A stretch of 64,000 nucleotides of DNA from an uncultured Christensenellaceae bacterium (GTDB lineage: Bacteria; Bacillota; Clostridia; Christensenellales; DTU072), in contig CAZTFQ010000007.1 of NCBI GenBank assembly GCA_964613035.1, positions 8,409 to 72,408 on the forward strand, in the 5' to 3' direction. Shown in pieces: positions 16,554 to 64,000 of this stretch. Below the pieces are notes generated by a model that was not told the DNA's origin, ran no database searches, and saw nothing but the letters and a program-made list of their open reading frames with translations. The position numbers and the translations under genes are program-made. Position 1 is the first letter of the stretch, and each line of letters begins with the position of its first letter.

Positions 16554-17414
16554 ATGATTTATATTGCAGGAAGTCTGAATATGGATATGGTGATAACCAG
16601 CCCTTATATCCCTAAAGAGGGCGAGACGATTACGGGCGGCGATTTCATCACCAACGGCGGCGGAAAAGGTGCCAATCAGGCAGTGGCGTGCGCCAAGCTC
16701 GGCGGCAAGGTTGCGATGTGCGGAGCGGTCGGAGACGATATCTTCGGCGTGACTCTTATCGACAATCTGAATAAGGTCGGCGTCGACACGACTCATATAA
16801 GCGTGGTTAAGGGAGTCTCTACGGGGATAGCCGTCATTATAGTCACCGACAATAACAATCGCATCATCCTGGATAAAGGCGCCAATGCCCGTCTGACGAA
16901 AGAAAACATCCGCGACTTCTTAAAAGACGCTCAAGCGGGGGATATATATCTTACTCAGCTCGAGAACCCCGTCGACGTAGTGGGATACGGACTGAAATTG
17001 GCTAAGGAAAAGGGACTCTTTACGATTTTGAATCCCGCTCCCGCCGATACGGATATATCGGAATATTTCGAGTACGTCGATTTAATCACGCCCAACGAAA
17101 CCGAGTCGGAACTCTTCGGAGGCAAAGAGTCGCTGTTTTCCGAAGGCATCGAGAAGATCGTCACGACTCTCGGCGGCAGAGGATACGAGATTGCCTCCAA
17201 GGAAGGCTCCGTCGTATATCCTTGTATGAAAGTTAACGTCGTCGATACTACGGCAGCGGGCGATACCCTGTGCGGCGGGCTGGCGGTCGGACTCTCGGAA
17301 AACATGTCGCTCGAGGACGCTTGTGCATTGGGTAGTAAAGCTGCATCTATCGCGTGCGAAAAGAGAGGCGCGCAACAGTCTATTCCGACAAGAAAAGAGG
17401 TTGAAACCTATTAA
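16554..17414 (+). CDS. rbsK: Ribokinase (PfkB family)
   Basis: GSLNMD, GGKGANQAVA, VGDDIFG, ILNPAP, PNETE, VDTTAAGDT motifs. Confidence 0.88.
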   Translation: MIYIAGSLNMDMVITSPYIPKEGETITGGDFITNGGGKGANQAVACAKLGGKVAMCGAVGDDIFGVTLIDNLNKVGVDTTHISVVKGVSTGIAVIIVTDNNNRIILDKGANARLTKENIRDFLKDAQAGDIYLTQLENPVDVVGYGLKLAKEKGLFTILNPAPADTDISEYFEYVDLITPNETESELFGGKESLFSEGIEKIVTTLGGRGYEIASKEGSVVYPCMKVNVVDTTAAGDTLCGGLAVGLSENMSLEDACALGSKAASIACEKRGAQQSIPTRKEVETY

Positions 17415-47668: not shown

Positions 47669-47705
47669 AGCGCAAAAACCTCAAAAAATCCGCAAAAATA
47701 AAAAG

Positions 47706-47734
47706 AAACACTCAGGAATGCCTGAGTGTTTTTT
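47706..47734 (+). terminator. Intrinsic terminator
   Basis: AAACACTCAGG-AATG-CCTGAGTGTTTTTT. Confidence 0.88.
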
Positions 47735-48193
47735 GACGAAACTAAGTTCGTCTGTTCTGCCATTTTCATGACAGAAACTAAGGGGGAAGGACAAATTATC
47801 TTCAGTATAGAGACTATTCCTTAAAATAAACTTAAAAACACCTCCCTCGTAAGAATTTAACGCAGAAGTTTTTCCGTTTTTCCGAGCTGTTTTCGGGTCT
47901 GGTTTTTACGGTGTCTATAACGTCCGTAAAATTGTAGGTTAAGATGATTCTATCGGGATAATAAAAATGCGGCACACAAGCACGCTTCCCACACTCACTA
48001 CGTAAACTTTATAGTTGCTTTTAGATACATAAAAAAACTAAAATTCTATTGAAAAGAAGCATTAACATGACGTATAAAAATTATGACATTCGCCGAAGAG
48101 ATTTTTATACATATAACGTTCGAGCCCCCTTGATTGGGCAAGACGTACGTGGCGTAATCCAAATATTTCCTAAATTATTCACAATTTTTAATA

Positions 48194-48222
48194 TTGATTT
48201 TACTAGCTTTGTCGGCTATAAT
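48194..48222 (+). promoter_or_regulatory. sigmaA promoter of the locus-2 AraC gene
   Basis: TTGATT (48194-48199), 17 nt, TATAAT (48217-48222). Confidence 0.65.
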
Positions 48223-48242
48223 TAAATAAAAAGAGATTGTTT

Positions 48243-49097
48243 ATGAGACCGTATGTCAGATTTGCCATGCACGATACAATTAACAAAAATTGGCATTTGT
48301 CACGTGCAATATGGGACTACGAAATCATCTATATAGCCGACGGCTCGATGATAGTAGAAGTCGAGAAAAACAAGTATGTCGCAAAACAAGGCGATATAAT
48401 CTTTTTGCGCCCCGACGTGCATCATATACTTAAGAGCGGCAGCGACTCCACTCAACAGCCTCACGTGCACTTCGATTTTTACGAGGACGACATGTCCCCT
48501 ATAATCCCCGTCTCGCTCAAGCCTAAGAAGAATATGACCCCGGAGGAAAAGAGATTCTTCCGCAACGACGATTTGGCTGCAATCGGAGCGGATTTTCCTA
48601 CGGTTATGTCTCTACACGACCACGTGACGGTCCGCAATCTTCTGTATAGGATAATCGATGAATTCCGATTAAAAATGCCCTATTCTCAATCATATATGCA
48701 GGCGCTCCTTCTTGAGATGATAGTTACTATTCAACGCAGCTATACGGCGTCCAAGCAAGGACTCAGCCGAGAGCATATTATCGCATTCGACAGAATTAAG
48801 AAATATATAAGAGACAACGTCGATCGCAATATATCGGTAGACGAGCTGGCAGGGCTTACTTTCCTAAGTAAGTATCATTTCATCAGAGTCTTCACTGCGC
48901 ACTTCGAAGCCACCCCTCATAAATATATAACCACGTTGAGAGTGGAGCGCGCTAAAGAACTATTGCTATACGACTCATTCCTTACGGTAGGGGACGTCGC
49001 CGCTAAAATGGACTTTGACTCTCAGCAGACCTTTTCCGCTTGGTTTAAGAAAAACACATCTTTATCGCCTCTCGATTATCGCCGATTGCACAAATAG
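48243..49097 (+). CDS. AraC-family regulator with N-terminal cupin sensor
   Basis: WDYEIIYI..G, LRPDVHH, HVHFD; C-terminal ISVDELA....SKYHF.R.F...F..TP..Y....RVERAKELL, VA.KM.F.S...FS..FKK....SP..YR. Confidence 0.95.
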   Translation: MRPYVRFAMHDTINKNWHLSRAIWDYEIIYIADGSMIVEVEKNKYVAKQGDIIFLRPDVHHILKSGSDSTQQPHVHFDFYEDDMSPIIPVSLKPKKNMTPEEKRFFRNDDLAAIGADFPTVMSLHDHVTVRNLLYRIIDEFRLKMPYSQSYMQALLLEMIVTIQRSYTASKQGLSREHIIAFDRIKKYIRDNVDRNISVDELAGLTFLSKYHFIRVFTAHFEATPHKYITTLRVERAKELLLYDSFLTVGDVAAKMDFDSQQTFSAWFKKNTSLSPLDYRRLHK

Positions 49098-49194
49098 CAA
49101 TTTTTACTAAAAAATAAAACAACTTTTAATATTCAATAATCCTCTCTAATTGTTTTAAACTAATCTTGAAGATTATACGGGAGGTTTTTTTGTT

Positions 49195-50844
49195 ATGAAA
49201 AAAGCATTTTCGATATTGCTATGCTTGATTTTGATTACATCGGCATGTCTTTGCATGGCGGCTTGCGTAGAGTCAGACCCAGAAGGCGTCACGACAATCA
49301 AAATGTCCGTCGTCTGGAACGGTCTCTCCTATATGGACCCCGACTCGGACGATAATCGCATCGCAGGTATTATGCAAGAGAAGACCGGGGTCAAACTCGA
49401 CGTCAAGTGGGTCAACGGCACGGAAAACGAGCAACTCGTCCGTATTTTTAGTACGGGTCGTAATATGCCCGACGTAATCATGGCTCCTTACTGGGGTGGC
49501 GGCGACGCTTGCAGCGACACTATAAGGAAGGCGGCTCGCGACGGACTCATCGTGCCTCTTGACGAGATGATAGCCGAGTACGCGCCCAATCTTGAAGGCG
49601 CCTACACAACGGGTGTAGCAACCAGCTTTATCGAAAATGAACTTTCCGCGGAAGAATTCGGCGGTAAAAAGTATATCATTCCTATGCATACGCCTAAGAA
49701 TACCGACGAATATCAGAATTGGGGTTATACCGTATATTGCCGTAAGGATATATTAGAAGCCCTCGACGTCGATCCCTCTTCGATTACTTCGTCCGAAGCC
49801 GTCTACGAGCTGGCTAAGAAGATTAAGGCGGGCAACTTCACCGATATCAACGGCAATTCCATTATCCCCGCGTCTTGCTGGGCCAACGGATACGGTGCGG
49901 AGTGCTATATGAATAGTTACAGAACGCACAATATAACCAACGTCGTAGACAAGGGCGATCATTATGAGTGGTCGGCAATGCAGGACAACGTGGAGGAAGA
50001 AGTCCTCTTTATGCAGAAGATGATATCCGAGGGACTCTTTGACAAGACGGCTTTCTCTCACAACGAGACGACTGCTCTATCCAAGCACGTGACAGGAGGA
50101 GTAGGGCTGACCGCAACTCAATATCCTTATATTAAGAAGAATCTTGAAAACACCCTCTACGCAACCAATCCCGAGATGGAGTACGTCCCCCTCGGACCGA
50201 TTCTCGACGCCAACGGCAACGCTTATATGCCTAATACCGTCTATGAAGAAGGCGGCTATTACGGATTTGCCGTGCTGATGGTATCTAAGGATTGCTCGGA
50301 AGAGAAGCTCGTCGCATTGATGAAATATCTCGACTATATCAATAGCGAAGAAGGTATGCTCCTTGCGTATCTGGGAGAAGAGGGAGTAGATTACTATGTA
50401 ACCGACGACGGCGAGTATCGTATGACGGATGAGTTTTTTGCCAACGAAGCTCTCGATCCCGATTACGCATACAATCAAGGTATAGACTCTTACTTCACGT
50501 TCGGCTGCTCCGGAGTGCCGTTCAATACTTTCGAGAGAGCTCGAGCCGAGACAGAAGACCTGACTTATAAGACGGTCAAAGAGATGTATCCCGTAGTGGA
50601 GAAGTCCGGCAGGCGCGCCAGCTCGTGGGACGACGACTTCGAAGATATCGATTATTTGCACGGCATACTCGAGACCATAGATTACTCGCTCACTATCCAG
50701 AGCGCATATTGTGCCTCAACGTCTACGGAAGCTCTAAAAAAACTCAACGATTATCGTAGCGCTATTCGGAGCAAAGGCTATCTCGACGCCTATCTCGGGT
50801 GGTTGTACGCTAAGATAAGCGCGTCCAACGATATACTCTTCTGA
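49195..50844 (+). CDS. Oligosaccharide ABC transporter substrate-binding lipoprotein (LplA-like)
   Basis: Lipobox MAAC. I.EKTGV, MPDVI, G.K.Y.IP, .RKDILE.L, Y..LGP, YL.YINSEEG..L..LG.EG.DY. Confidence 0.9.
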   Translation: MKKAFSILLCLILITSACLCMAACVESDPEGVTTIKMSVVWNGLSYMDPDSDDNRIAGIMQEKTGVKLDVKWVNGTENEQLVRIFSTGRNMPDVIMAPYWGGGDACSDTIRKAARDGLIVPLDEMIAEYAPNLEGAYTTGVATSFIENELSAEEFGGKKYIIPMHTPKNTDEYQNWGYTVYCRKDILEALDVDPSSITSSEAVYELAKKIKAGNFTDINGNSIIPASCWANGYGAECYMNSYRTHNITNVVDKGDHYEWSAMQDNVEEEVLFMQKMISEGLFDKTAFSHNETTALSKHVTGGVGLTATQYPYIKKNLENTLYATNPEMEYVPLGPILDANGNAYMPNTVYEEGGYYGFAVLMVSKDCSEEKLVALMKYLDYINSEEGMLLAYLGEEGVDYYVTDDGEYRMTDEFFANEALDPDYAYNQGIDSYFTFGCSGVPFNTFERARAETEDLTYKTVKEMYPVVEKSGRRASSWDDDFEDIDYLHGILETIDYSLTIQSAYCASTSTEALKKLNDYRSAIRSKGYLDAYLGWLYAKISASNDILF

Positions 50845-50846
50845 TT

Positions 50847-51812
50847 ATGATCAACGTAGGAAGAATTAAAAAGGCAGGAGTAATGCTCCGCCTGGAAAAC
50901 CTCGGCAGAAGCATAATGAAGTACAGACATCTGTATCTCTTCTTGTTGCCTGCCGTAGTGTGGTTCTTTGTGTTTTGTTATATCCCGATGGGCGGATTGG
51001 TACTGGTCTTCAAGGACTACTCGTTCTCCAAGGGCGTCCTCGGTTCCGAGTGGGAAGAGCCTTTGTTGAAAAACTTCGAGTTGTTCTTCAACATGCCCGA
51101 GCTCGGCACTATGGTGACCAATACCATATATATTGCGCTCATACGTCTGGCACTCTTCCCCGCTCCGATAATATTAGCGATAATGCTCAACGAGGTCAAG
51201 AATCCCGTCTTCAAGAAATTTATCCAGACGGTATCGTACTTTCCCTTTTTCATATCTTGGGTCATCGTCGCCTCGATGCTGGAGCAGTTGCTCACTCCGT
51301 ACGGTAGCGGAGGTCCTCTCTACCATATGTTGCAACTCTTCTCCGGTAGTAGCGAAATCAAATATTATATGGTGGACAAGCCGTACTTCTATCCGCTTGT
51401 CGTAGTAACCTATCTATGGAAGACGGTCGGATGGAACTCCATCGTATACCTCGCGTCCATATCCAATATAGATCCGACGCTCTTCGAAGCAGCCGAGATA
51501 GACGGTTGTAGCAGATTCAGAGTTATACGCAAAGTTATTTTGCCTCATTTAAAACCGACGATTATATTGCTATTCGTCATGGCTCTCGGCTCTATTATGT
51601 CGGCGGGATTCGAGCAGATATATTTTCTTCAGACTCCCTCCAACTACGACTATAGCAACGTACTCGACGTCTGGGTAGTCAAATACGGTCTGGAGCAAGG
51701 CAAGTATGCCCTTGCCGCCGTGGCGGGACTGTTCCAGGGACTGATAGGATTGATATTTATAGTAGTCGGCAATACGGTCGTCAAGAAGATCGGAGGTACG
51801 TCGCTATGGTAA
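50847..51812 (+). CDS. ABC permease (LplB/YteP-like)
   Basis: YIPM.G....FKDY, KK..QT.SY.P.FISWV.V, WK..GWNSI.YLA.I..ID..L.EAA.IDG. Confidence 0.93.
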   Translation: MINVGRIKKAGVMLRLENLGRSIMKYRHLYLFLLPAVVWFFVFCYIPMGGLVLVFKDYSFSKGVLGSEWEEPLLKNFELFFNMPELGTMVTNTIYIALIRLALFPAPIILAIMLNEVKNPVFKKFIQTVSYFPFFISWVIVASMLEQLLTPYGSGGPLYHMLQLFSGSSEIKYYMVDKPYFYPLVVVTYLWKTVGWNSIVYLASISNIDPTLFEAAEIDGCSRFRVIRKVILPHLKPTIILLFVMALGSIMSAGFEQIYFLQTPSNYDYSNVLDVWVVKYGLEQGKYALAAVAGLFQGLIGLIFIVVGNTVVKKIGGTSLW

Positions 51813-52735
51813 ATTCCCGAATTAAACCCAAAAGACTATTCAAGCCGTCGCTACCTAAAAAACGGACCTCTCCCGGGGAGAAAGTCTTTTCCGCAATCAA
51901 CGCTATCCTTTTGATAGGACTCGCAGTCACGATGATATATCCGATGTATTACATCATTATATTGTCCTTCAACGACGGCGCCGACGCGCTCAAAGGCGGT
52001 ATATGGCTCTTCCCGAGAGTGTTTACTCTCGATAATTACAAGACGGTCTTCGCCAACGAACAGCTATTGACGGCTTTCGGCATATCGGTAGCAAGGACAG
52101 TCATCGGCACTATCGTATCGGTAATATTGATAGCGATGATGGCGTATGCACTGGCAATCAAAGAGCTGCCGGGGAGAAAAACGTTCAACAAGTTTTTCTT
52201 CTTCACGACGATATTCTCCGGCGGAATGATCCCCATGATCAGCTTGCTCAACAAGCTGGACCTGTTGGATAATCCTCTGGTCTATATTTTGCCGGCAATA
52301 TACTCGTTTTATAATATGTTGCTTATGAGGACGTCTTTCGAAGCCACCCCGAAAGCATTGAGAGAAGCCGCTCTTATGGACGGCGTCAGCGAATGGAAAA
52401 TATTCTTTAAGGTGTATATGCCGCTCAACAAGCCCGTCATCGCAACTGTCGCGCTTTTTACGGCGGTTTTCCATTGGAACGACTGGTTTGCAGGTAGCTA
52501 CTATATCTCTACCGACTGGATGAAACCTGCCGCGACTATCCTTCAAGAGATGCTTCAAGAAGCACTCGGCAACTTGAACAATGCCAGTGCCACTGGCGGC
52601 GCAGCAGTGACAACCACCGCGCAGACTCTCCAGATGGCTTTCGTCGTGGTTATTACCTTCCCGATAATGGTCGTGTATCCCTTTTTGCAGAAGTATTTTA
52701 CAAAAGGCGCCGTTGTAGGCTCCATCAAAGAATAA
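51806..52735 (+). CDS. ABC permease (LplC/YtcP-like)
   Basis: YP.YYI...SF, FSGG.IP, EAA..DG....IF..V..PL.KP, WNDWF, VYPFLQKYF.KG..VGSIK. Confidence 0.93.
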   Translation: MVNSRIKPKRLFKPSLPKKRTSPGEKVFSAINAILLIGLAVTMIYPMYYIIILSFNDGADALKGGIWLFPRVFTLDNYKTVFANEQLLTAFGISVARTVIGTIVSVILIAMMAYALAIKELPGRKTFNKFFFFTTIFSGGMIPMISLLNKLDLLDNPLVYILPAIYSFYNMLLMRTSFEATPKALREAALMDGVSEWKIFFKVYMPLNKPVIATVALFTAVFHWNDWFAGSYYISTDWMKPAATILQEMLQEALGNLNNASATGGAAVTTTAQTLQMAFVVVITFPIMVVYPFLQKYFTKGAVVGSIKE

Positions 52736-52767
52736 CAATCAACCTTAGAAAAAACAAGGAGGTTTTT

Positions 52768-55077
52768 ATGAAAACAAAAAGAGCTGGTAGAATCAAAAAG
52801 AGTTTGATTTCGCTATTGCTTATCTCGATGTTGGTCGTCCCTATATTCGGATGCGACGGCGATCCCGATCGGGGCTCATCGGAAGATAAGGTGCAGTTGA
52901 CGGAGAAAAACGATATGCTCGTATTGAACAACGACTCCGTATCGCTGTCGTTCATGAAGGACAACGGGTCTCTCGTCTCTATCAAGAATGCCTCTTCCGG
53001 TACGGACTATATAGAGGACTCCGAGGGCGGCAATTGGGCGTTGTCTATAGATTTATCTACCGACGATTGCTTCGAGTCTAACCCCACCGGCGCTAATACG
53101 GTCCTCGTCAGCAGCCGTACGCAAAGTATGACTTATAGTAAGACCGATCTCTCCGACGGCATTGCGCTGACTTTCGATTACGCCGTATCCTTCACTTCCG
53201 ACTCGGTTACTTACACGGGCATTACGGTCAAAGAGACCGTTACTCTCAAGAAGGGCGCCTCCGATGCGAGTTTTGCTTACGAAATAACCAACGGCGTCTC
53301 GGGCTCGGTCATAACGACCTTCACGGGAGCCCAAATCTCCGGTTTGAAGAACGACAACGGCGACTATAATCTCTTCTGGCCTTATAAAGAGGGCAAAATA
53401 TACGAGAATGCAGTCAAAACCGTCAAGACCGCCAAGGACGACACCGCCAGAATGGTAGCGGAGTATCCATCTCCCATGTCGATGCAATTGGTACAGCTCT
53501 ACAACGACAAAGAGGCGTTGTATTACTACGTGCCCGACGCGACCAGAGAGTATAAAGAATTCAACTTCGGCGCGTTCATCAACAAGGGACAATATGACTT
53601 CCAAGGAGTGCAGGTGGCGGATAAAGTATCCCTGTCTTGCAGCAGATATCCTTTCATCGAGCCGAATGAAACCAAGTCGGTAGAAGCGGTCATCGGCGTG
53701 TCCGCGCACGGCGATTGGTACGACGGCAGTGACAGATACAGACAATTTTTGATCGATTCCGGCATGACCAGAGCCTCCAATTCTCTTACGGAAGAGTGGA
53801 CGGGATTCTCGGTGCTGATCGGTACTCAATACGGCGATAAGCAATTCGCCGCATATGCTCAGGCGGAAGGCTTCGAAGATACTTACACCAATTGGGCAGA
53901 GAAGACCAATCAATACGGCGTGACAACCACGACTCTTATCGGTTGGCACGCGGGCGGATTCGATTCGATGTATCCCGATTATGAGTTCCAGACCGGGACC
54001 GGATTCGGCGAGGACAACTTCAAGCTGGCTATGGAGCAAGGTCACGCCAACGGCAATACTTTCCTTGCGTACATCAACGCGCATATAGCGGATAAAGAAT
54101 CCAAGTGGAGCAATACCGTTTACAACGCGGCAACGGGCATAACCAATATGGAACAAGCCGCTATCAAGACTAAAGGATTTTCTTCTACTACGGGAAAAGA
54201 CGATTATGTCAATTATATGATGAGAGAGTCTTACGGCACGGGTACTTATTACTATGCCATGTGTCCCGATTCCGAGCTCTTCCGAGACGCTATTTTATCC
54301 GCGGTCGGCAGACTTAGAAAAAACGGCGTCGACGGAATATGGTTCGATCAGTTAATGGAAATGCCTGCCAATCTGTGCTACGACGCCTCACACGGTCACG
54401 AGACGCCCGCTACCGCTTACGGTGAGGGTTACGGGGAACTTTTCGCAGAACTCGAGCGCGTTATGTCTTCCGTATCCGGCGCGTATATGTTCGCCGCGGA
54501 AGGCGTATGCGACGCCTGGATAGAATATGTCGACGTGTGCGGTTATATGTGGTCCAGAAAACTGGGCGCAAGAGATACCGACGGTAAGAATATGTCTCCC
54601 GAGCTTACTCGTTACACAATGCCCGCAACTTTCTTAGGAATAGAGGGCGCAGGGACGACTTCGGGCGATTCGGACGAGTTTGCAAGAGCGTTCGTAATGT
54701 CCGATCCTTTCCTTGCCGATCCCTATAAGCCGTCTGTCGGCAGCCTTACGAGCGTATATGCGCAAGATTCCACTTATCTGACCGGTAGATACGTCGATAC
54801 GTTGGGAGCTATTTCCGACGACGAGTATCTCATATTCGGTCAGACGCTATCATCGGACGGCAAGAAGATTGCGCTCACAGTCTACAACTACAACGACGAG
54901 GCTTCTTCCGGCGCGACGATTAAGCTGGATCTCGATAGGCTCGGACTCGGCGACTGCAAGATAGACTCCGCTATAGAGATGTTCACGGGAGACAAAGTCT
55001 CTTACAGCGGTAGCGTCATTAATCTCCCCGATATAGAAGAACTAGGCATCACGTCAATCCTCATCACACTCAAATAA
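52768..55077 (+). CDS. Uncharacterised lipoprotein, putative glycoside hydrolase (N-terminal beta-sandwich plus TIM barrel, DUF6259-like)
   Basis: Lipobox IFGC. Barrel-like motifs GWH.GG.D..YP.Y, AYIN, MCP, G.DG.W.DQ, AEG..D suggest a GH-like acid pair. Family assignment is from recollection only. Confidence 0.55.
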   Translation: MKTKRAGRIKKSLISLLLISMLVVPIFGCDGDPDRGSSEDKVQLTEKNDMLVLNNDSVSLSFMKDNGSLVSIKNASSGTDYIEDSEGGNWALSIDLSTDDCFESNPTGANTVLVSSRTQSMTYSKTDLSDGIALTFDYAVSFTSDSVTYTGITVKETVTLKKGASDASFAYEITNGVSGSVITTFTGAQISGLKNDNGDYNLFWPYKEGKIYENAVKTVKTAKDDTARMVAEYPSPMSMQLVQLYNDKEALYYYVPDATREYKEFNFGAFINKGQYDFQGVQVADKVSLSCSRYPFIEPNETKSVEAVIGVSAHGDWYDGSDRYRQFLIDSGMTRASNSLTEEWTGFSVLIGTQYGDKQFAAYAQAEGFEDTYTNWAEKTNQYGVTTTTLIGWHAGGFDSMYPDYEFQTGTGFGEDNFKLAMEQGHANGNTFLAYINAHIADKESKWSNTVYNAATGITNMEQAAIKTKGFSSTTGKDDYVNYMMRESYGTGTYYYAMCPDSELFRDAILSAVGRLRKNGVDGIWFDQLMEMPANLCYDASHGHETPATAYGEGYGELFAELERVMSSVSGAYMFAAEGVCDAWIEYVDVCGYMWSRKLGARDTDGKNMSPELTRYTMPATFLGIEGAGTTSGDSDEFARAFVMSDPFLADPYKPSVGSLTSVYAQDSTYLTGRYVDTLGAISDDEYLIFGQTLSSDGKKIALTVYNYNDEASSGATIKLDLDRLGLGDCKIDSAIEMFTGDKVSYSGSVINLPDIEELGITSILITLK

Positions 55078-55103
55078 CATTATTCGTATAAGGACTACAG
55101 TTT

Positions 55104-56129
55104 ATGAAATTCGATTTTAATTATCATCGCATACAATCTCGCGCAATCACCGCCGAAAACTTCCACGGAGATAAGGGCATGGGCGGCATGGCTACTGAAG
55201 GTATGGGAAAAATCCCTGCCGGAGATTTGGGCAAGACCTTCAAAATATCTCCCTGTATGCTCGTGCCTAAGCAGACCGACTTCGTTATGTGCGACATCAA
55301 AGGCAGCGGAGAAGTCAACCATATATGGATGACCTGCGCTCCGGAAGCTTATTCGGCGATTATAGAGTTTTATTACGACTGCGCGCAAGTACCTTCGGTC
55401 AGCCTGCCTATCGCTAAGCTCTTCGCTATAGGGTTTGACCGTAAGTCTATAGTCAACTCCCTAATGATCACCGTTAACCCCGCAGGCGGAATGAATCTCT
55501 ATTGGCCGATACCCTTCCGCAAAGGACTCAGAGTCGTGCTCAAGAACGTCACCGACAGCGATATCGTCATTTATTACCAATTCGATTATCAGCTCAAGCG
55601 TATTCCGCGCTCTACTTGCTATTTCCATGCCTTCTACAACGAGTCGTTGCCTCTAGAGGCTAAGAAGAACCATATGCTCCTCAATAAGATAGAGGGCAGA
55701 GGCACGTATTGCGGAACATTCATGACTTTCAAAACCGACTTCACTACCTGGTGGGGCGAGGGCGAAGTCAAGTTTTTCATCGACGGAGACAAAGATTATC
55801 CGACGATATGCGGTACGGGTACGGAGGACTACTTCGGCGGCGCGTGGAATTTCGAGCAACCGCTGGGTACCTACAGAAGCTATTCTACGGCGTATCAAGG
55901 ACTCGTCGACGTCATCCCCGAGGACAAAATATACGTCACGGATCAGAAGTTTTCTATGTATCGATGGCATATATCCGACCCCGTATATTTTGCCAAAGAT
56001 CTGCGAGTCGAGATACAGGCAATAGGTTGGGAAGAAGGTTTACTGCACTATCGTGCGCTGTCTCCCGAGATAACTTCCGTCGCCTACGTCTACCTCGACA
56101 AAATAACCAACGTAAAAAATAAAAAATAA
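55104..56129 (+). CDS. GH172 / DUF2961 glycoside hydrolase (alpha-D-arabinofuranosidase / alpha-D-fructofuranosidase family), cytoplasmic
   Basis: AENF.G.KG.GG, G.G...HIWMT, N..W..PF, YFHA, G.G.Y.G, WWGEGE.KF.IDG, GTGTEDYF.GAW, YRWHI.DP..F..DLRV.IQ. No signal peptide. Confidence 0.88.
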   Translation: MKFDFNYHRIQSRAITAENFHGDKGMGGMATEGMGKIPAGDLGKTFKISPCMLVPKQTDFVMCDIKGSGEVNHIWMTCAPEAYSAIIEFYYDCAQVPSVSLPIAKLFAIGFDRKSIVNSLMITVNPAGGMNLYWPIPFRKGLRVVLKNVTDSDIVIYYQFDYQLKRIPRSTCYFHAFYNESLPLEAKKNHMLLNKIEGRGTYCGTFMTFKTDFTTWWGEGEVKFFIDGDKDYPTICGTGTEDYFGGAWNFEQPLGTYRSYSTAYQGLVDVIPEDKIYVTDQKFSMYRWHISDPVYFAKDLRVEIQAIGWEEGLLHYRALSPEITSVAYVYLDKITNVKNKK

Positions 56130-56149
56130 ACAATTTGGAGGAAACAAAA

Positions 56150-58678
56150 ATGAAAAAATTAACCTATGTGTTGATTATCGCATTGTTGATTGTTTCGCTT
56201 ACCGCTCTAATCGCCTGCGACGACGAAGAAATCCCGTCGGGGACTCCTTCCGGCAGCGAATTAGAAGTGTCCGAGCGTACGATCAACGTGACCGTACTCG
56301 ACGGTTCTGCGGCTGTGTCGGGAGCAGGGGTCTATATCCGCTCGACCGATTACTCCGCGACAACCGACGCCTCGGGTAAATGTCAATTGGTTTTATCTGC
56401 TGACGACTCCTCCGCCGATTATTATTCTCTCATCGTCAAGAAGACCGATTACCTCGATGCCGGTTACAAAGTCAATGCTTCGGACTTTAGCGACAACGTA
56501 GCAGACGTCACCGTCTCTATCTATACCGAGGACATCGTTATATCGGGTTCCGTCTCATGCGGAGACGTCGCTTTACAAGACGTACTCGTATCGGTATCTT
56601 CGGACGACGCGACCGCTATAACGGATAAAGACGGCAACTACTCGCTCGTCATCCCTCGTCCCATAGAGAGCTTCTCGATAACTTTCTCCAAGTCTCTATA
56701 TGCCGATTATAGCTTAGAGATCACCGACCTTGAAAAATCTCTCTACACCGTCAATGCGGTTCTTAGCGAGAATTCCTTCAACGTAGAAGGTACCGTCGCT
56801 CATTACTTCAACGGTGCAATCGACGGCGCTACCGTCAAAGTCGTCGGCACCGATACATCCGTGACGACCGATAGCGAGGGCAACTTCTCTATATCCGATA
56901 TCAAGGGGCTCGATCTTCCTTATCGACTTGCAGTTACCAAGACCGGTAGTCAGACCGCAATCGTCAAGGTGGAAGAAGCCGACGCCGAGCTGGAGATAGA
57001 GCTCGTCGACGATCCCGTCAAACTCGGCATCCTCTCCCCCAGCAACAAGAATTACTCAATGTCCGTCGTGCGCGACTCCAAAGGTATATGGTTTTATTTC
57101 GACAGCGCGTTCCAATTTGTCGATGGCGATAAACTGTGCATCTACATCGACGTCAACGAAACGGGCACCGTCTCCGTAGGCAGCAGCGTACTGGAGTTTG
57201 CCCTGTGCGGGGACTGCGATGCCGAAGGCAATCCTATCGCACTTGTTTGGAATCTTAAAACAAGCCAATCGGTAACCGAAACTGCCGAAATCGAATGGGG
57301 TAAAGAAGTTATTTACAACCTATATAACACAGAAGAAGGGTCGTATATAGAGGCATTCATCTCTTATGACGTCTTCGCCAAAGCCGGCGCTGACTTCGCT
57401 ATCGACTACAAGTCCGTAGTGGGCATATCCTTCTTCGACCGTGGTTCAAACAGTTCCGGTGCCGTGGGCTGGGACAGCGCGGACTTCCCCGGAGCCGACG
57501 GTGCCAATTGGGTACATCCCGACAGACCTTACGACTTCGTCCGTCTCGCTCCCGAGAACGTCATCTACGAAGCCGCCGACAATACCTACGTACCTTATAT
57601 CGACTATAACGTCGTCATTAACGTCCAAGACGAGGAAGGTAACGCCATTAACGGAGCCTCCGTCAATATGGTCTATCCTTACGAGATTTCCAAGATAGCA
57701 GAAGAAGGCGAAGTCGCTTTCGTCCTCAACGGAAAATATTTCAATAAGGAGCCTCGCTTCACCGCTATTGCGGAAGGATATGCAATGGCATCCGTAACGA
57801 TCGCCAGAACGGAATTCGTCGACGGCTCGACGGTAGTCGACATAACGCTCAAAGAAAACGACGTCATCCTTAGCGGCACGGGAAAAGTATCATCTTTGTC
57901 GGGCGCTCTTCAGGGAGTATCCGTATCCGTAGAGGGCTATGAAGGCTCCGTGCTTACCGACGCCGACGGCTCTTATGACATTTCTACTCTCAATATCGAC
58001 GCTAAGGGATTATCTTCTTATCAACTCGTTTTCAGTAAAGACGGTTACGACAACAAGACCCTTAACGTCACCATCGGCATGGAAATAGACGACGTCACGA
58101 TGCTTGCCGAGGCTCGCAATCTGGGGACTTTCGGAAATTATGGTTGGAACGTCACCATAGATCGTAGCGAAACCAAGCTCATCGTTGATCTCGTCAGTGC
58201 TCATAACTGGTACGGAAAGACCGATCTGGACGGCAATACTACTTTTAGCGAGAACGAACTTCAGATATATTTCGTCACCGATCTTACCGCTAAATCGAAA
58301 ACCGCCGACGGATTAAGAGAACTCACGATAGTAGAAAAGGTTTCTCAAGGCGGTACCGACTGGGCAGGCTGGAGAGACGGTAGCAGAAGCTTCCTCACCT
58401 GGCCCGGAATTACCTATAGCGTATACAACGGTGACGACGGATGTAAGGTCCATGTAGAAGTTGCGTACAGCCTTCTCGGAATAGATAAGGGTGACACCGT
58501 AGGTCTGGCTCTCGGCGAGTGGTACGGTCAGGAGACGGCTAAGTGGTCTTGTCCTTTCTATACCAGCGGTACGCAGACTTTCGTAACCTCGGGCTGGGCA
58601 GTTAACGTCAATGATCCTTCCACGTCCCTTCACTGGGCGGCAGATAACTCCACCAAGGTAGTATACGTCGCAGAATAA
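56150..58678 (+). CDS. Non-catalytic-looking surface lipoprotein with repeated carboxypeptidase-regulatory-like (Ig/TTR-like) and DOMON-like domains
   Basis: ATG 56150, lipobox LIAC. Repeated (V/I).G.V......(L/V).GA.V......TD..G.(Y/F).(I/L) units; two sugar-binding-like domains (YIEAFISY..., VEVAYSLLG). Confidence 0.7.
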
Positions 58679-58688
58679 AATCAATCTA

Positions 58689-58720
58689 ATTTCTCCCGCG
58701 GAGCGATTCGCGGGAGAAAT
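58689..58720. other. Strong intergenic stem-loop without downstream U-tract
   Basis: ATTTCTCCCGCG-GAGCGATT-CGCGGGAGAAAT: perfect 12-bp stem just upstream of the ABC ATPase gene. Confidence 0.72.
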
Positions 58721-58739
58721 ATCAACGGAGATAATTTTC

Positions 58740-60359
58740 ATGACCGAAGAAAACAGAATAAAGAAGATCGAACTGAAGAAGAACGAAAAAATTCATCTAG
58801 AGATGATAGAAAATCAACTTCTCAACAGAAGATTGGTTAAGATCGCCCCCGAGGACGTCTGCATATCGTTCAAGAATATCAACAAGATATACCCCAATCA
58901 TAAGCAGGCGGTATTTGATTTCGATTTGGACATAAAAGAGAAAGAATTCATCGTATTCGTAGGTCCGTCGGGTTGCGGCAAGTCTACGACTCTCAGAATG
59001 CTCGCGGGATTAGAGGATATCACGTACGGAGACCTCTTCATCGACGGCAAGTACGCCAACGACCTTATGCCCAAGGAGCGCGACGTCGCGATGGTCTTCC
59101 AAAACTACGCCCTCTATCCCAATATGAGCGTCTATGACAATATGGCTTTCTCCCTACAAGCGAGGAAGTATGACAAAAAGGAGATAGATAAAAGGGTAAG
59201 GCACGCCGCGAAGATCTTAGAGATAGAAGAATATCTCGACGTCAAGCCTGCCAATCTGTCGGGCGGTCAGAGACAAAGAGTCGCGCTCGGAAGAGCGATT
59301 GTTCGTAATGCTAAAGTTTTTCTTATGGACGAGCCTCTCAGCAATCTTGACGCCAAGTTGAGAGTACAGATGCGTAGCGAGATAGTCAAACTTCACAACC
59401 AAGTGGGAGCCACTACGGTGTACGTCACTCACGACCAGACCGAGGCAATGACCATGGCGACCAGGATAGTGGTAATGAAAGGCGGATATGTCCAACAGAT
59501 AGGCACGCCCAAAGATATCTACAACAATCCTTCCAACGTTTTCGTCGCTAAGTTTATCGGTTCGCCCGCAATGAACGTACTCGACTGCGTCATAGAAGAC
59601 GGCTCTATAGTCTTGCCCAACGGTCTTATTATACCCCTCACTGAGGCAAGACTCTCCGCTATCAAGGACTTCTATATCGACGAAATCGACTCTACGGAGA
59701 AGAATATCGCCGCACTGGAGCAGGAAATAGAGGATCGCGAATACGAGCTCACTCACCCCGATTACGTTAGAGCCGCAATTGCCTTCGACAAAAAACGTAA
59801 CAAAATATCTTCCGAGATAGCCAAGTTGAGTGAAAAAATTAAAAAAGCCAAGCGCTCGTTTAAGGGCGACGACGTCATAGCGCCTCTTCAAGAGTCGTTG
59901 AGCCGTAAGAATGCAGAGTATGCGACATTCGTCGAGGAGCAAGAGGCTCTCCTTAAGTCGACGGAGTATAAGGAAGTCGTTCCGCGTAATTACGACAAGA
60001 TTCGAAACACCGACGATTATCTCAATATCTATCGTCAGGACTTAGAGAAACTCCGCGCCGACCTCAAGTATTACAAGTCGTGTGCGGCAGGAGAAAACAC
60101 CGCCTATCTATTCGGTATCCGCCCGGAAGAAATCTACTTCGACAACGATTCGGACGGATTGTCGGAGGAGTTTTCCGCCGATATTACCGTGGCGGAATTA
60201 TTGGGACACGAGTACTTCATCCACTTCAACGTAGGAGATACCGACGTTACCGCCAAGCTCAATACCGAGGAACTCGTCGCGGGACAGACGATCGGGCTGA
60301 AGCTAGACCTCAAATATCTGCATATATTTGACAAACATAGCGAAAAACGCATTTTTTAG
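58740..60359 (+). CDS. Sugar ABC transporter ATPase (MsmK/MalK-like) with ~150-aa helical insertion
   Basis: [83 protein letters not shown]. Confidence 0.93.
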
Positions 60360-60372
60360 ATAAAGGTGTAAT

Positions 60373-60957
60373 ATGTACAAAGATTTACTTCAAGACATAA
60401 TGATAAAAGAGCGTGACTCCGTCAATGCGCTCATCGAGTCGACTAACACTCAATACGACGAGGTCATAGAGACTTTGCTTAACTGCAAGGGCAAGGTAGT
60501 ATTCTTCGGAATCGGCAAGAGCGGTCATATCGGAGAGAAACTCGCCGCGACGTTTTCCAGTACTGGCACACCGTCTATATTCGTCCACGCGGCAGAGGCT
60601 CGTCACGGGGACTTCGGGATGATAGAGGCTCGCGACGTCGTCATATTGATGTCTCATAGCGGTACGACTTCAGAGACGGTCTCCGCCGTCGATACCCTCA
60701 AGACGATAGGCTGTAAGACGATAGCTTTTTGCCGAGACGGAGACACGACTTTGGCTAACCGATGCGATCTCCGTATAGGATATCCTTTCGGACAAGAGGC
60801 AGATCCTATGGGGGTTGCGCCCAGCAGCAGCACGACCGTGCAGTTGGTGCTAGGCGACGCGATAGGATTGACGCTGTCCTCTCTCAAGGGCTTCACCAGA
60901 GCGGATTTCGGCAAATTCCATCCGGGCGGAACTTTAGGGAAAATGCTCAATAAATAG
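60373..60957 (+). CDS. SIS-only D-arabinose-5-phosphate isomerase (KpsF/GutQ family, no CBS domains)
   Basis: G.GKSGHIG.K.AAT.SSTGTPS.F.H..EA.HGD.G, SHSG.T.E, AP.SSTT..L..GDA, DF..FHPGG.LG; the protein ends where the CBS pair would begin. Confidence 0.88.
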   Translation: MYKDLLQDIMIKERDSVNALIESTNTQYDEVIETLLNCKGKVVFFGIGKSGHIGEKLAATFSSTGTPSIFVHAAEARHGDFGMIEARDVVILMSHSGTTSETVSAVDTLKTIGCKTIAFCRDGDTTLANRCDLRIGYPFGQEADPMGVAPSSSTTVQLVLGDAIGLTLSSLKGFTRADFGKFHPGGTLGKMLNK

Positions 60958-61023
60958 TATTTGAGTTTTGGGTAACCGTATCGTATAATTAAGTAGACTA
61001 AACAAGGATTTTAGGAGAAAAAG

Positions 61024-61917
61024 ATGAGTATACTCGTAGTGGGAAGTTTCGTGACGGATCTGGTAGCGACCACCGACAGAGCCCCGGAGGCGGGCGAATC
61101 CGTCAGAGGCAATTCTTTCAACATATATCAAGGAGGCAAAGGCATCAATCAAGCCGTTGCGGCTAAGCGTATGGGTGCCGACGTTATTATGGCAGGGTGT
61201 CTGGGCAACGACTCCTTCGGCGATGACTTCATCAAGACAATCGAGGCAGAGGGGATGTCTACCGAGTATATCAAGAGATCGGATTCGGCTACCGGGTGCA
61301 GTCTGATAGTATTGGATAAAAACGGGCAGAATCGTATCTGTATGACTCCGGGAGCCAACCTCGACTATGCTACGGAAGACTTATACGGTATCGAGAGTCT
61401 GATAGAAGATGCCGACGTCGTCGTTACGCAATGCGAGATGATTCCCGAGATTGTCGATGAATTAGCCGCACTGTGCTCTAAGCACAATAAGAAGTTCATT
61501 CTCAATCCGGCTCCCGCAAGAGCTTTGAGCGACGAGGTGATCTCCGCTACTTACGTTATTTCTCCCAACGAGACCGAGCTGGGAGTGATTATCGGTAGGA
61601 CGCTAGTCAGCGACGAGGATTATATATCGGGTGCTCGAGAGTTGCTCGATAGAGGCGCCGACAACGTCGTCGTAACTCTCGGGAGCAGAGGAAGTCTTCT
61701 CGTCAATAAAGACGTCGTCGAGATAGTCCCGGCTAAGAAAGTCAAAGCCGTAGACACGGTAGGCGCGGGAGATTCTTTCACAGGGTCTCTGGCTGCCTTC
61801 ATAGCAGAAGGCAAAGATGTTTTGTCCGCGATGAAACTCAGTACTGCAGTAGCCGGACTGCAAGTCACTCGTCGCGGAGCCATTCCATCTATGCCGTATA
61901 GAAAGGAGATAGAATAA
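61024..61917 (+). CDS. Ribokinase-family pentose kinase (candidate D-arabinose kinase)
   Basis: GSFVTD, GGKGINQAVAA, GND.FG, LNPAPA, PNETE, VTLGSRG, VDTVGAGDSF. Confidence 0.88.
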   Translation: MSILVVGSFVTDLVATTDRAPEAGESVRGNSFNIYQGGKGINQAVAAKRMGADVIMAGCLGNDSFGDDFIKTIEAEGMSTEYIKRSDSATGCSLIVLDKNGQNRICMTPGANLDYATEDLYGIESLIEDADVVVTQCEMIPEIVDELAALCSKHNKKFILNPAPARALSDEVISATYVISPNETELGVIIGRTLVSDEDYISGARELLDRGADNVVVTLGSRGSLLVNKDVVEIVPAKKVKAVDTVGAGDSFTGSLAAFIAEGKDVLSAMKLSTAVAGLQVTRRGAIPSMPYRKEIE

Positions 61918-61930
61918 GGAGTTATTACTA

Positions 61931-63688
61931 ATGAAAAAGTCATTAAAAATATTTATGATTACCGTAGGAATAATCGTTTTGTTGCTATGCTTGATTATTG
62001 CAGGTTGCGACGAAAAACACACTCATAGTTACGTTATTTTTTCGACTTATAAAGAGGCTTCTTGTACGGAAGAGGGCGAGACGCGAGTATATTGCGAATG
62101 CGGCGAGTATATTTCCGAGACCATATCGGCTCCGGGGCATGACTACGGAGAGTGGACTACGATAGAAGAAGCCACCGTTACCGATGACGGGAAAAAACAA
62201 CGCGAGTGTTCTCGTTGTTATGATATAGATGAGCGGATTATCCCTGCCACAGGTGTATCGGTATCCGCATATCCGTCGGTCTACGTGTCCTTCGACAATC
62301 CGGACAACAACGGCAACTTCTATGACTGTATTTCAGGCGACGCTATCTACAATCACTTGGGCGTATCCGAAGCGGAAGGTCGGTCGTCAAAAGGCGCTGT
62401 CTTCGACGGCACCGATTATTTGGAGATAAGTGCGGCTGCTCCGACGAGCAATTCCGCCTATACGGTCTCTTGCTGGATCAAGATCGATACGACGTCTCTA
62501 GAGACCGGTCGAGAGTACGTGATAGTAGGCTGGGGCGACGCTACTTCCAATCAAGGAACTGCGTTGACTGTCAAAAACAATCGTCTCTACGCAACCTTCT
62601 TGACTAATAGACCGGTATGCGATCTGCCTTCTGACTGCGCAACGGTCTGGCATCACGTCGCACTGACTTACGACGGCGCTACGCATAAATTGTACCTCGA
62701 CGGCGACGAAAAGTCTTCTCTCACTCTTACCAACGGTATGGAAATAAGCGAGTCTCCTATATATGTCGGCGGATTGGACGGAGAAAAGAATTATTGCGGA
62801 AAAATAGACGAGCTGATGATATTCAACTCGGTAATAAACAACGAGGAGATAGTATATTATATGGATAATATAGGCAACTTAAGACTAAGCAATCCCACCA
62901 ACGACATCCCCGTTTCGGACGGGAAAAAACAATTCGACGTCAACGGAACGTACATCACCAACGGCTGGAATAGGTTCTATTACGAGTACAACGGCACAGA
63001 GCTCGGCGTAGCCGTACATTTGCCCAGGAATTACGACCCCTATAAAACCTATCCGCTGCTTATATCGCTGCACGGCGACGGATATCTTAACAAGACCCTC
63101 GATCAGATAATGACCTGCGGTGATAATAACTTTGCAAAAAGCGCCATGTCTCTAGGCGAAGATTGCATAATCGTCATGCCAAACGCAGGGACGGAAGTTT
63201 GGCTCTATGTACCCGATATTAAGCAATATGTAGACAATCAATATCTTTCTAGAAGTTACGATATGTCGACAGCTGTCCCCAGTGCTGAATTGAATGCGGT
63301 CGACAATCTCATAGACGTACTTATCGCCAACTACCCCGTCGATAGAGATAGAGTCTATCTCGCGGGATATAGCAGAGGTTGTATGGCGTCTTTTTATCTG
63401 ATGAATAAGAATCCCGAGCGTTTTTCCGCGGCAGTGCTTTGCTGCGGAGCGGGCGATTCCTCTATAATGCCCGACTTGGCATCCATACCGCTTTGGTTCT
63501 ATTGCGGAGACCAAGACAACCTCGTATACTACAATGACTTCAAAAAACTCTACGACATATACGTAGAAGCAGGTGGTCAGGGACACTTCACAACCTGCCC
63601 CGGCGGCGACCACGGAGCCCCCGCTAGCTACGTCAACAACAATACGGAACTTATCGAGTGGGTCTTCTCACAGAAGAAATCTTCTTAA
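61931..63688 (+). CDS. Lipoprotein: His/Cys surface repeat, LamG/ConA-like domain and alpha/beta-hydrolase (esterase) domain
   Basis: Lipobox IAGC. H.HSY....ASCTEEG...C.CG repeat; YTVSCWIK...WHHVALTYDG..LYLDG...IDELMIFN (LamG). Esterase motifs PLLISLHG.G, D.DRVYL.GYSRG, GDQD, GGDH. Confidence 0.85.
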   Translation: MKKSLKIFMITVGIIVLLLCLIIAGCDEKHTHSYVIFSTYKEASCTEEGETRVYCECGEYISETISAPGHDYGEWTTIEEATVTDDGKKQRECSRCYDIDERIIPATGVSVSAYPSVYVSFDNPDNNGNFYDCISGDAIYNHLGVSEAEGRSSKGAVFDGTDYLEISAAAPTSNSAYTVSCWIKIDTTSLETGREYVIVGWGDATSNQGTALTVKNNRLYATFLTNRPVCDLPSDCATVWHHVALTYDGATHKLYLDGDEKSSLTLTNGMEISESPIYVGGLDGEKNYCGKIDELMIFNSVINNEEIVYYMDNIGNLRLSNPTNDIPVSDGKKQFDVNGTYITNGWNRFYYEYNGTELGVAVHLPRNYDPYKTYPLLISLHGDGYLNKTLDQIMTCGDNNFAKSAMSLGEDCIIVMPNAGTEVWLYVPDIKQYVDNQYLSRSYDMSTAVPSAELNAVDNLIDVLIANYPVDRDRVYLAGYSRGCMASFYLMNKNPERFSAAVLCCGAGDSSIMPDLASIPLWFYCGDQDNLVYYNDFKKLYDIYVEAGGQGHFTTCPGGDHGAPASYVNNNTELIEWVFSQKKSS

Positions 63689-64000
63689 ATTCCAACCGTA
63701 CGACATTGTACGTACTATGCGCGGTTAGGATTACTTGTATTGTTAGCCTGTGACGGATATTCACGGTCCGACTCTGCTAAAAAGGATGTCATCCCGATAT
63801 CATTTTTGTTGTATAAACACAAAAGTGCCCAAAATAGCATTTTTCGTATATAAAAATTAGCTTAACGAATGACTCGAAAACTACATAAATCCATCTAACA
63901 AAATACGCACCTCAAAATAGTGATTTATCTATGATAGCAGGGTATATATTCTAACATTCTCTTCCGTCGAACTTGAACTCGTCGATATATGACGGTTTCC

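Follow-up and report, generated by a model that had tools for sequence, protein, structure and literature searches.

This analysis concerns a gene cluster in a metagenome-assembled genome (MAG) of an uncultured Christensenellaceae bacterium (1.65 Mb, 32 contigs, 93% complete), which probably serves the AraC-controlled utilisation of glycans containing alpha-D-arabinofuranoside (alpha-D-Araf), as a D-arabinan-type oligo- or polysaccharide. The cluster lies in a window of 64,000 nucleotides (the whole stretch of DNA analysed, C7:8409-72408 of the MAG, to which all coordinates refer unless a contig is named). Families were assigned with Pfam and NCBIfam models, and eleven open reading frames, all on the plus strand and with short gaps between them, were found in the interval. 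A first-pass annotation of this DNA had described a co-directional cluster here, and the positions and the gene content were confirmed. The features are as follows:

48237..49097, + strand: AraC-family regulator with an N-terminal cupin sensor and a C-terminal helix-turn-helix (HTH_18 68 bits, AraC_binding 29 bits)
49195..50844, + strand: solute-binding lipoprotein of 549 amino acids, of a CUT1-type oligosaccharide ATP-binding cassette (ABC) importer (SBP_bac_1 39 bits)
50847..51812, + strand: permease 1 of the ABC importer (BPD_transp_1 61 bits)
51806..52735, + strand: permease 2 of the ABC importer (BPD_transp_1 53 bits)
52768..55077, + strand: surface lipoprotein of 769 amino acids with DUF6259 (PF19773 94 bits, the sole Pfam match)
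55104..56129, + strand: GH172/DUF2961 protein of 341 amino acids with no signal peptide, predicted cytoplasmic exo-alpha-D-arabinofuranosidase (PF11175 242 bits)
56135..58678, + strand: surface lipoprotein of 847 amino acids with lipobox Cys28 (CarbopepD_reg_2 85 bits)
58740..60359, + strand: dedicated MsmK/UgpC-type ABC ATPase of 539 amino acids (NF008653 452 bits, ABC_tran 106 bits)
60373..60957, + strand: SIS-only (CBS-less) arabinose-5-phosphate isomerase homologue of 194 amino acids (KdsD/KpsF/GutQ 188/175/166 bits)
61024..61917, + strand: ribokinase-family (PfkB) kinase, predicted D-arabinofuranose 5-kinase (TIGR02152 312.9 bits)
61931..63688, + strand: LamG and alpha/beta-hydrolase esterase lipoprotein (Laminin_G_3 79 bits, Esterase 40 bits)

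The glycoside hydrolase (GH) family 172 protein carries a double jelly-roll DUF2961 domain (PF11175 242.4 bits against a cut-off of 27), and its closest solved relative is ExoMA1 (PDB 8IC8), which was matched over the full length (E 7e-95, 321 bits; 44% identity over 329 amino acids by blastp), compared with only 99 bits for alphaFFase1. ExoMA1 of Microbacterium arabinogalactanolyticum is a characterised exo-alpha-D-arabinofuranosidase with weak fructofuranosidase activity, and its Asn253 blocks the hydroxymethyl group of fructofuranoside (Fruf), which alphaFFase1 accommodates with Gly299 (PMC10509167). When the locus protein was aligned to 8IC8 and 7V1V, both glutamate motifs (WWGEGE and GTGTEDY) were found to be identical, and it reads TEDYFGGAWN where alphaFFase1 reads TEDYFNHAWG, which places an asparagine at the position of ExoMA1 N253 and alphaFFase1 G299. 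The catalytic glutamates of alphaFFase1 are reportedly E270 (WWGEG) and E291 (GTGTEDY), in work by Kashima from 2021. In a maximum-likelihood tree of 61 rows, the eight GH172 proteins linked to DUF6259 formed one clade (SH-aLRT 98), nested in a group with a support of 100 that also holds ExoMA1 and GH183-linked enzymes. By score, asparagine and tree, the protein falls in the alpha-D-Araf-specific ExoMA1 subfamily and not with the fructofuranosidase type of alphaFFase1, and at the level of sequence it is strongly supported that it would remove alpha-D-Araf residues in the cytoplasm, as had been proposed in the first-pass annotation.

The DUF6259 lipoprotein, encoded directly upstream of the GH172 gene, has no sequence match in the PDB, and Pfam gives DUF6259 only, with no sequence membership of GH129, GH36 or GH101. 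Its structure was modelled by AlphaFold2 from an alignment of 38 sequences (predicted local distance difference test (pLDDT) 90.9, predicted template modelling (pTM) score 0.90) and the fold was searched with Foldseek. In the model, a disordered lipoprotein leader precedes a (beta/alpha)8 barrel that is flanked by an N-terminal and a C-terminal beta-sandwich; the lipobox cysteine (Cys29) is invariant among the 38 homologues, so the TIM-barrel-like surface lipoprotein of the earlier annotation, which had asked for structure prediction, is borne out. The top Foldseek matches were GH129 (ZgGH129, NagBb), GH36 alpha-galactosidases, the blood-group-A alpha-galactosaminidase of Flavonifractor plautii and GH101 endo-alpha-GalNAcases (E 5e-25 to 1e-20, TM 0.5-0.68, identity 10-15%), and the three-domain architecture is shared with representatives of these families (NagBb 5WZN, ZgGH129 5OPQ, FpGalNase 9AYU, EngBF 2ZXQ). 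In addition, a profile search returned a marginal match to GH129 NagBb (E 0.03) over GWhxGGFDsmYPDY, NagBb and DUF6259 having in common a stretch of the form GW..GG(F/Y)D..(Y/H)PDY. Asp527 (WFDQ, strand 523-527) and Glu578 (AAEG, strand 574-578) show no variation among the 38 homologues. Each stands where a barrel strand ends, the two being approximately 50 residues apart, and they are candidates for the Asp nucleophile and the Glu/Asp acid-base of GH129/GH36/GH101-like enzymes, resembling the Asp/Glu pair of GH101 and GH129.

Every DUF6259 homologue examined above approximately 500 bits was found directly upstream of a GH172 gene in an AraC/ABC locus (9 of 9 lineages, reaching down to approximately 40% identity and including Tyzzerella). 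The wider family comprises 2,408 representatives at E <= 1e-3, and neither "DUF6259" nor "PF19773" was found in any paper of the library searched. Distant members were seen in a Bacteroidota-like sigma/anti-sigma SusC/D locus with NamZ and a polysaccharide deacetylase (L019/L020) and, in forest soil, beside a sulfatase (L108); the family probably spans several specificities. Judged from the model, the lipoprotein very probably belongs to an undescribed family of glycoside hydrolases. Its fold, its position and its strict adjacency to GH172 suggest, as a candidate role, a retaining alpha-glycosidase acting as the surface depolymerase of a D-Araf glycan, and it is the position of the gene that points to D-arabinan as the substrate.

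Related loci were compared with the window, the close relatives being metagenome contigs L002-L008 and a Christensenellaceae MAG (L009). The order AraC, solute-binding protein, permease, permease, DUF6259, GH172, lipoprotein, ATPase is kept in five related lineages, with the GH172 proteins 64-83% identical, and the gene arrangement is therefore not due to chance. The SIS and PfkB genes follow directly after this cluster in four of the five close lineages (the window, L004, L006/L008 and L009); in L009, tilS-, hpt- and CCA-enzyme-like housekeeping genes come after the kinase gene. The pair also lies 8 kb downstream in the Tyzzerella DUF6259 locus and recurs with GH172 in more distant settings. 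A Bacteroidales MAG from goat gut (L011) carries a SusC/D polysaccharide utilisation locus (PUL) with two GH183, two GH172, GH43, GH2, LacI and, where PUL42 of Dysgonomonas gadei has a fucose isomerase, PfkB plus SIS, and also an unannotated protein of 353 amino acids, and in a second such MAG (L012) a GH172-PfkB-SIS neighbourhood was seen by tblastn only; the source of both was goat omasum/abomasum. In the Clostridia genome G316 (L069; contig 1, 1569100-1589099) the order is PfkB-GH172-GH3-GH172-GH116-GH183-solute-binding protein-permease-permease-SIS with a divergent LacI gene; from its sequence, this is an apparently uncharacterised Gram-positive D-arabinan locus which has the complete canonical (Microbacterium) enzyme set together with the kinase/A5P (arabinose-5-phosphate) isomerase module. 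A minimal locus consisting of a two-component system, ABC, PfkB, SIS and GH172 was also found (L106). The linkage of GH172 to isomerase and kinase in relatives, which the earlier annotation had put forward as a test, was thus seen in four of five close lineages, in Tyzzerella, in L011/L012 and in L069.

Across the class, ExoMA1-type GH172 was present in 59 of 399 sampled genomes, while SIS-only homologues were rare (12 of 399), with PfkB adjacent in 7 of the 13 loci examined. Among 40 GH172 neighbourhoods of the class, the kinase/isomerase pair was found in one (L069) and DUF6259 in none, so GH172 alone is no predictor of this system, and loci with DUF6259 form a separate, rather uncommon type. 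Uncharacterised loci of the GH183 type already occur in Clostridia genomes (L069), and what sets the present locus apart is the DUF6259 variant rather than its being a Clostridia version as such. The closest SIS-only isomerase outside GH172 loci (53% identity) was found, with PfkB, at approximately 9000-17300 of L094 (genome G395, same order), surrounded by genes for two DHDPS/NanA-type lyases, an RbsD/FucU mutarotase, two YhcH/DUF386 proteins, RpiB, an EamA transporter and an amidohydrolase. Pyruvate and D-arabinose would be the products of a Kdo-aldolase-type lyase, and L094 may be a sugar-acid (Kdo-like) catabolic locus which uses the D-arabinose kinase and isomerase module.

The SIS protein scored 188 bits with the KdsD model (cut-off 505) and 174.6 bits with TIGR00393 (cut-off 203.7), both of which include the CBS pair that is absent here; 6-phospho-3-hexuloisomerase was considered and rejected, as that model gave only 36 bits against 188 for KdsD. 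A single-domain phosphosugar isomerase, PDB 5UQI, was matched with 197 bits and 52% identity. The catalytic residues of E. coli KdsD are K59, H88, E111, E152 and H193; in an alignment to 2XHZ, the Lys of GKSG, the His of RHGD, the Glu of TSE and the Glu of QEAD stand at positions 59, 88, 111 and 152, and the His motif HPGG at the C-terminus aligns to 5UQI. Absence of the CBS pair is shared with known single-SIS-domain arabinose-5-phosphate isomerases (5UQI/5VHU; B. fragilis 3ETN; the SIS domain of E. coli KdsD, 2XHZ). The protein is accordingly described here as a homologue of these enzymes, predicted from sequence to convert D-arabinose-5-phosphate to D-ribulose-5-phosphate. Known enzymes of this kind provide the A5P from which Kdo or capsule is made or, in Gram-positives, are without an assigned role, whereas the context here predicts the reverse, catabolic direction. 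Kdo-8-phosphate synthase was not found in the genome, which leaves no apparent need for A5P in biosynthesis, and ribulose-5-phosphate epimerase (Rpe) and transketolase (Tkt) are both encoded.

The kinase passes the NCBI ribokinase equivalog TIGR02152 (312.9 bits against a cut-off of 299.65), the fructokinase model gave 71 bits, and its best PDB matches are ribokinases. A253, G254 and D255 (the GAGD anion hole with the catalytic Asp255) were invariant in two kinase alignments. The 2-OH of arabinose collides with the lid residue Ala98 of E. coli ribokinase, and the substitution A98G raises kcat on D-arabinose 15-fold (PMC9604405). The locus kinase has Val at the position of E. coli ribokinase Asn14 and Ser at that of Ala98, and the ribose-face residues are not kept; since human ribokinase is also without an equivalent of Asn14, position 98 alone is informative. 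This position is Ser or Gly in seven of the eight GH172-linked kinases, with Ser in the four Christensenellales-type kinases and Gly in L069, L011 and L012. A second ribokinase-family gene in the window (16554-17414), whose product is 33% identical to the locus kinase and keeps both Asn14 and Ala98, lies upstream of a gene for a protein of 1,235 amino acids with SASA-esterase and Listeria-Bacteroides repeats. Comparative genomics and the lid-residue changes suggest D-arabinofuranose as the substrate of the locus kinase and A5P as that of the isomerase. The earlier assignment of an SIS-only A5P isomerase and a ribokinase-like kinase agrees with these results (KdsD, KpsF and GutQ being the best families and the ribokinase model being passed), as does a feed into the pentose phosphate pathway, given the presence of Rpe and Tkt and the absence of Kdo-8-phosphate synthase. 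No paper describing a kinase-first route for D-arabinose was found in a literature search.

The solute-binding protein of the importer is 70-85% identical across related loci, and its sequence weakly matches large substrate-binding proteins of the PDB (AlgQ2 and 5G5Y, for example). The 847-amino-acid lipoprotein, whose position is conserved in related loci (40-63% identity), was modelled (AlphaFold2, pLDDT 76) as approximately five CarboxypepD_reg/transthyretin-like domains and two larger beta-sandwich domains. Foldseek returned pilin, TIE and Ig-like arrays only and no catalytic fold; the protein had been annotated as a binding-type lipoprotein, but it is an array of beta-sandwich domains and not a solute-binding protein. 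On the strength of the model it is a candidate glycan-capture or scaffold protein. The ATPase has an N-terminal extension of 40 amino acids and an insert of approximately 150 amino acids (window 59655-60105) which splits the MalK-type regulatory domain (OB_MalK 274-304, TOBE_2 459-530). Both the extension and the insert are conserved in close orthologues, and the orthologues are 539-560 amino acids long, with 470 in L018.

The AraC gene heads every related locus examined; in the window it starts with TTG at 48237, an ATG at 48243 being the other candidate start. Counts of promoters and terminators predicted in 47500-64000 were not above those of shuffled controls. The upstream limit of the locus is set by a hairpin at 47706-47731 (a perfect 11-bp stem with T-runs), located after two ABC exporter genes (43137-47668). 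The contig stops 109 bp past the window, so there is no view of anything downstream. The LamG-esterase gene begins 14 bp after the kinase gene, and its product matches the esterase PDB 3DOH (E 9e-17). It was not found in any related locus examined and is therefore regarded as an accessory, lineage-specific addition; its place in the cluster, as first annotated, stands with regard to position but not to membership of the conserved system, and a role as a mycolyl/acyl esterase of the core system was rejected, as it is not conserved. Paralogues with 36-39% identity are encoded on contigs C20 (C20:15842-22338) and C2 (C2:13931-14641), the former adjoining a CarboxypepD_reg-like protein related to the 847-amino-acid lipoprotein.

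Two D-arabinan systems described in 2023 were compared with the locus. The cluster of Microbacterium arabinogalactanolyticum encodes EndoMA1/2 (GH183), ExoMA1 (GH172), ExoMA2 (GH116) and an ABC importer (Shimokawa et al. 2023, PMC10509167), and has in common with the window extracellular enzymes, an ABC oligosaccharide importer, a cytoplasmic GH172 of one subfamily with the specificity asparagine, and the delivery, predicted for the window, of D-arabinose to ribulose-5-phosphate. Unlike that cluster, the window has an AraC regulator, with the DUF6259 and beta-sandwich-array lipoproteins in the extracellular role. For catabolism it has the ribokinase-family kinase and the SIS-only A5P isomerase, whereas the Microbacterium paper refers to "a putative isomerase and kinase" and names no families (PMC10509167); its supplements contain none of the words "isomerase", "kinase" or "ribulose", so the gene families are not given there either. 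PUL42 of Dysgonomonas gadei encodes GH172 a/b/c and GH183 a/b (Al-Jourani et al. 2023, PMC10115798), and shares with the window that a gut bacterium couples GH172 exo-alpha-D-arabinofuranosidases (predicted in the window) to an uptake system and to the catabolism of D-arabinose. PUL42 has SusC/D and GH183 endo-enzymes, in contrast to the ABC importer, the DUF6259 protein and the predicted kinase-first route of the window; its aldose isomerase of the fucose-isomerase type is the most abundant D. gadei protein on D-arabinan (PMC10115798). L069, L011 and L012 share the PfkB and SIS-only module with the window (36-40% and 28-31% identity) beside an ExoMA1-type GH172, but differ from it in having GH183 (with GH116 and GH3 in L069, and GH43 and GH2 in L011) and no DUF6259.

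As in canonical D-arabinan loci, an importer, a cytoplasmic GH172 and a module leading from D-arabinose to ribulose-5-phosphate are present, and the locus most likely works like one of these. It is not, however, a D-arabinan locus of the canonical GH183/GH116 type, as both defining enzymes were searched for in the genome and neither was found. At the cell surface, the beta-sandwich-array lipoprotein would hold the glycan and the DUF6259 protein, as a retaining alpha-glycosidase, would cut or trim it to a size suitable for import. The solute-binding lipoprotein, the two permeases and the dedicated MsmK-type ATPase would then take up the oligosaccharides, which are the presumed ligand, and in the cytoplasm GH172 would release alpha-D-Araf residues. 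The ribokinase-family kinase is predicted to phosphorylate D-arabinofuranose at O5, yielding D-arabinose-5-phosphate, and the CBS-less SIS isomerase to convert this to D-ribulose-5-phosphate, which would enter the pentose phosphate pathway via the epimerase and transketolase of the genome. The route from D-arabinose through A5P to ribulose-5-phosphate is supported most strongly by the recurrence of the kinase/isomerase pair with GH172, including in GH183 loci. Judged from sequence, two elements are most likely new, namely a candidate GH family (DUF6259) and a D-arabinose route in which the kinase precedes the isomerase. A more far-reaching proposal combines these: DUF6259 would found a GH family whose GH172-linked subfamily is a surface alpha-D-arabinanase replacing GH183 in gut Bacillota (Christensenellales, Lachnospirales), PfkB would be a dedicated D-arabinofuranose 5-kinase, and this kinase together with the CBS-less isomerase would form an undescribed D-arabinose pathway. 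As a whole, this is put forward tentatively, its joint truth being possible but somewhat doubtful. A gut habitat is suggested by relatives only (the goat-gut Bacteroidales MAGs and the Christensenellaceae MAG).

Several observations weigh against the utilisation of D-Araf glycans as set out above. Complete breakdown of mycobacterial arabinan requires an endo-D-arabinanase (GH183) and an exo-beta-D-arabinofuranosidase that takes off the beta-caps (GH116). Neither GH183/DUF4185 (PF13810) nor GH116 (PF04685) gave a match in the 93%-complete genome, although the former model finds GH183 in L011 and L069 and the latter gives matches in control genomes; mycobacterial-type D-arabinan is therefore only a candidate polymer, as the absence of the two families fits a DUF6259 protein that cuts D-arabinan but fits equally another D-Araf-bearing glycan or a scavenging life-style. 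The known GH129, GH36 and GH101 relatives of DUF6259 act on galacto-configured pyranosides and not on furanosides, while its context predicts a D-arabinofuranoside, and distant DUF6259 members occur in other contexts without GH172 (NamZ/deacetylase; sulfatase). The kinase lies above the curated ribokinase cut-off, so that it could be an ordinary ribokinase, and the Tyzzerella kinase retains Ala98, for which reason a change of Ala98 to Ser or Gly was rejected as a universal signature. No kinase/isomerase pair was found in L002/L003 and L018 within the flank examined, and in 38 of 40 sampled GH172 loci of the class neither an isomerase nor a kinase gene lies within 10 kb. The asparagine equivalent to N253 is kept in most Clostridia GH172 proteins regardless of context; being so widespread, it backs the assignment to the subfamily without being peculiar to this locus, and was rejected as a marker separating it from other Clostridia GH172 proteins. 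In the same 40 Clostridia genomes (L052-L091), 38 of the 40 ExoMA1-type GH172 genes have no GH183, DUF6259, SIS or PfkB within 10 kb, and most of the encoded proteins keep the asparagine.

Three other explanations were weighed. The target could be a heteroglycan which carries alpha-D-Araf as a side chain or cap (lipopolysaccharide (LPS), capsule, a pilin-type or other gut glycan), with DUF6259 cutting a non-arabinose, galacto-type alpha-linkage, or this protein could be an exo-trimmer of oligosaccharides freed by other community members and not a depolymerase of D-arabinan. This is unlikely but deserves consideration, since DUF6259 is closest in structure to alpha-galactosidases, alpha-GalNAc/GalN-ases and a 3,6-anhydro-D-galactosidase, the genome is without GH183 and GH116 matches, D-Araf occurs in pilin and some LPS glycans (PMC10115798), and DUF6259 is a large family (2,408 representatives) with distant members in unrelated contexts. 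Against this, GH172 is the sole other glycosidase of the conserved locus, the pentose (A5P) route is its sole catabolic module, and the constant adjacency to GH172 of DUF6259 proteins above approximately 500 bits argues for one D-Araf-rich substrate for both.

In another of these explanations, an ordinary ribokinase for scavenged ribose, beside an SIS protein which makes A5P for biosynthesis or regulation, as proposed for the Clostridium tetani enzyme, would render the adjacency to GH172 incidental. The ribokinase equivalog score fits this, A5P has been proposed to act in regulation in a Gram-positive (cited in PMC8470653), the pair is missing beside the cluster in L002/L003 and L018, and SIS and PfkB pairs occur away from GH172 too; but four independent locus types from two phyla combine the pair with GH172, the genome lacks a Kdo-8-phosphate synthase and has a second, canonical ribokinase-like paralogue with Asn14 and Ala98, and the lid position is Ser or Gly in all but one of the eight linked kinases, so incidental adjacency is judged very unlikely. 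More improbable still is a locus for alpha-D-fructofuranosides or difructose dianhydrides (caramel- or inulin-derived) like that of Bifidobacterium dentium alphaFFase1, with PfkB as a fructokinase. GH172 does include alphaFFase1, ExoMA1 keeps a weak Fruf-ase activity (PMC10509167) and PfkB kinases include fructokinases (71 bits with that model here). However, the GH172 scores 99 bits to alphaFFase1 against 321 to ExoMA1 and has an asparagine where alphaFFase1 needs Gly299 for the Fruf hydroxymethyl group (PMC10509167), the ribokinase model gives the kinase 313 bits and the fructokinase model only 71, the catabolism of fructose has no use for an A5P isomerase, and the kinase/isomerase pair also sits in GH183 loci. 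The overall reading of the first-pass annotation, utilisation of a D-arabinose glycan, is accordingly judged to be supported and the best-supported explanation.

D-Arabinan forms the core of the mycobacterial and corynebacterial cell envelope and, to our knowledge, the first enzymes for its degradation were reported in 2023, their sources being limited to Bacteroidota, Actinomycetota and the phages and predators of these. The present locus points to common gut Clostridia as further foragers on D-arabinofuranose glycans, and DUF6259, with approximately 2,400 representative sequences, might provide a new means of taking arabinogalactan and lipoarabinomannan apart. The kinase may phosphorylate D-arabinose naturally, which would be useful for making arabinoside nucleoside analogues, a purpose for which E. 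coli ribokinase needed engineering. The conversion of D-arabinose to A5P and then to ribulose-5-phosphate is a testable two-enzyme route which, if true, explains the presence of A5P isomerases in bacteria without Kdo and would give the "orphan" A5P isomerases of Gram-positives a physiological role.

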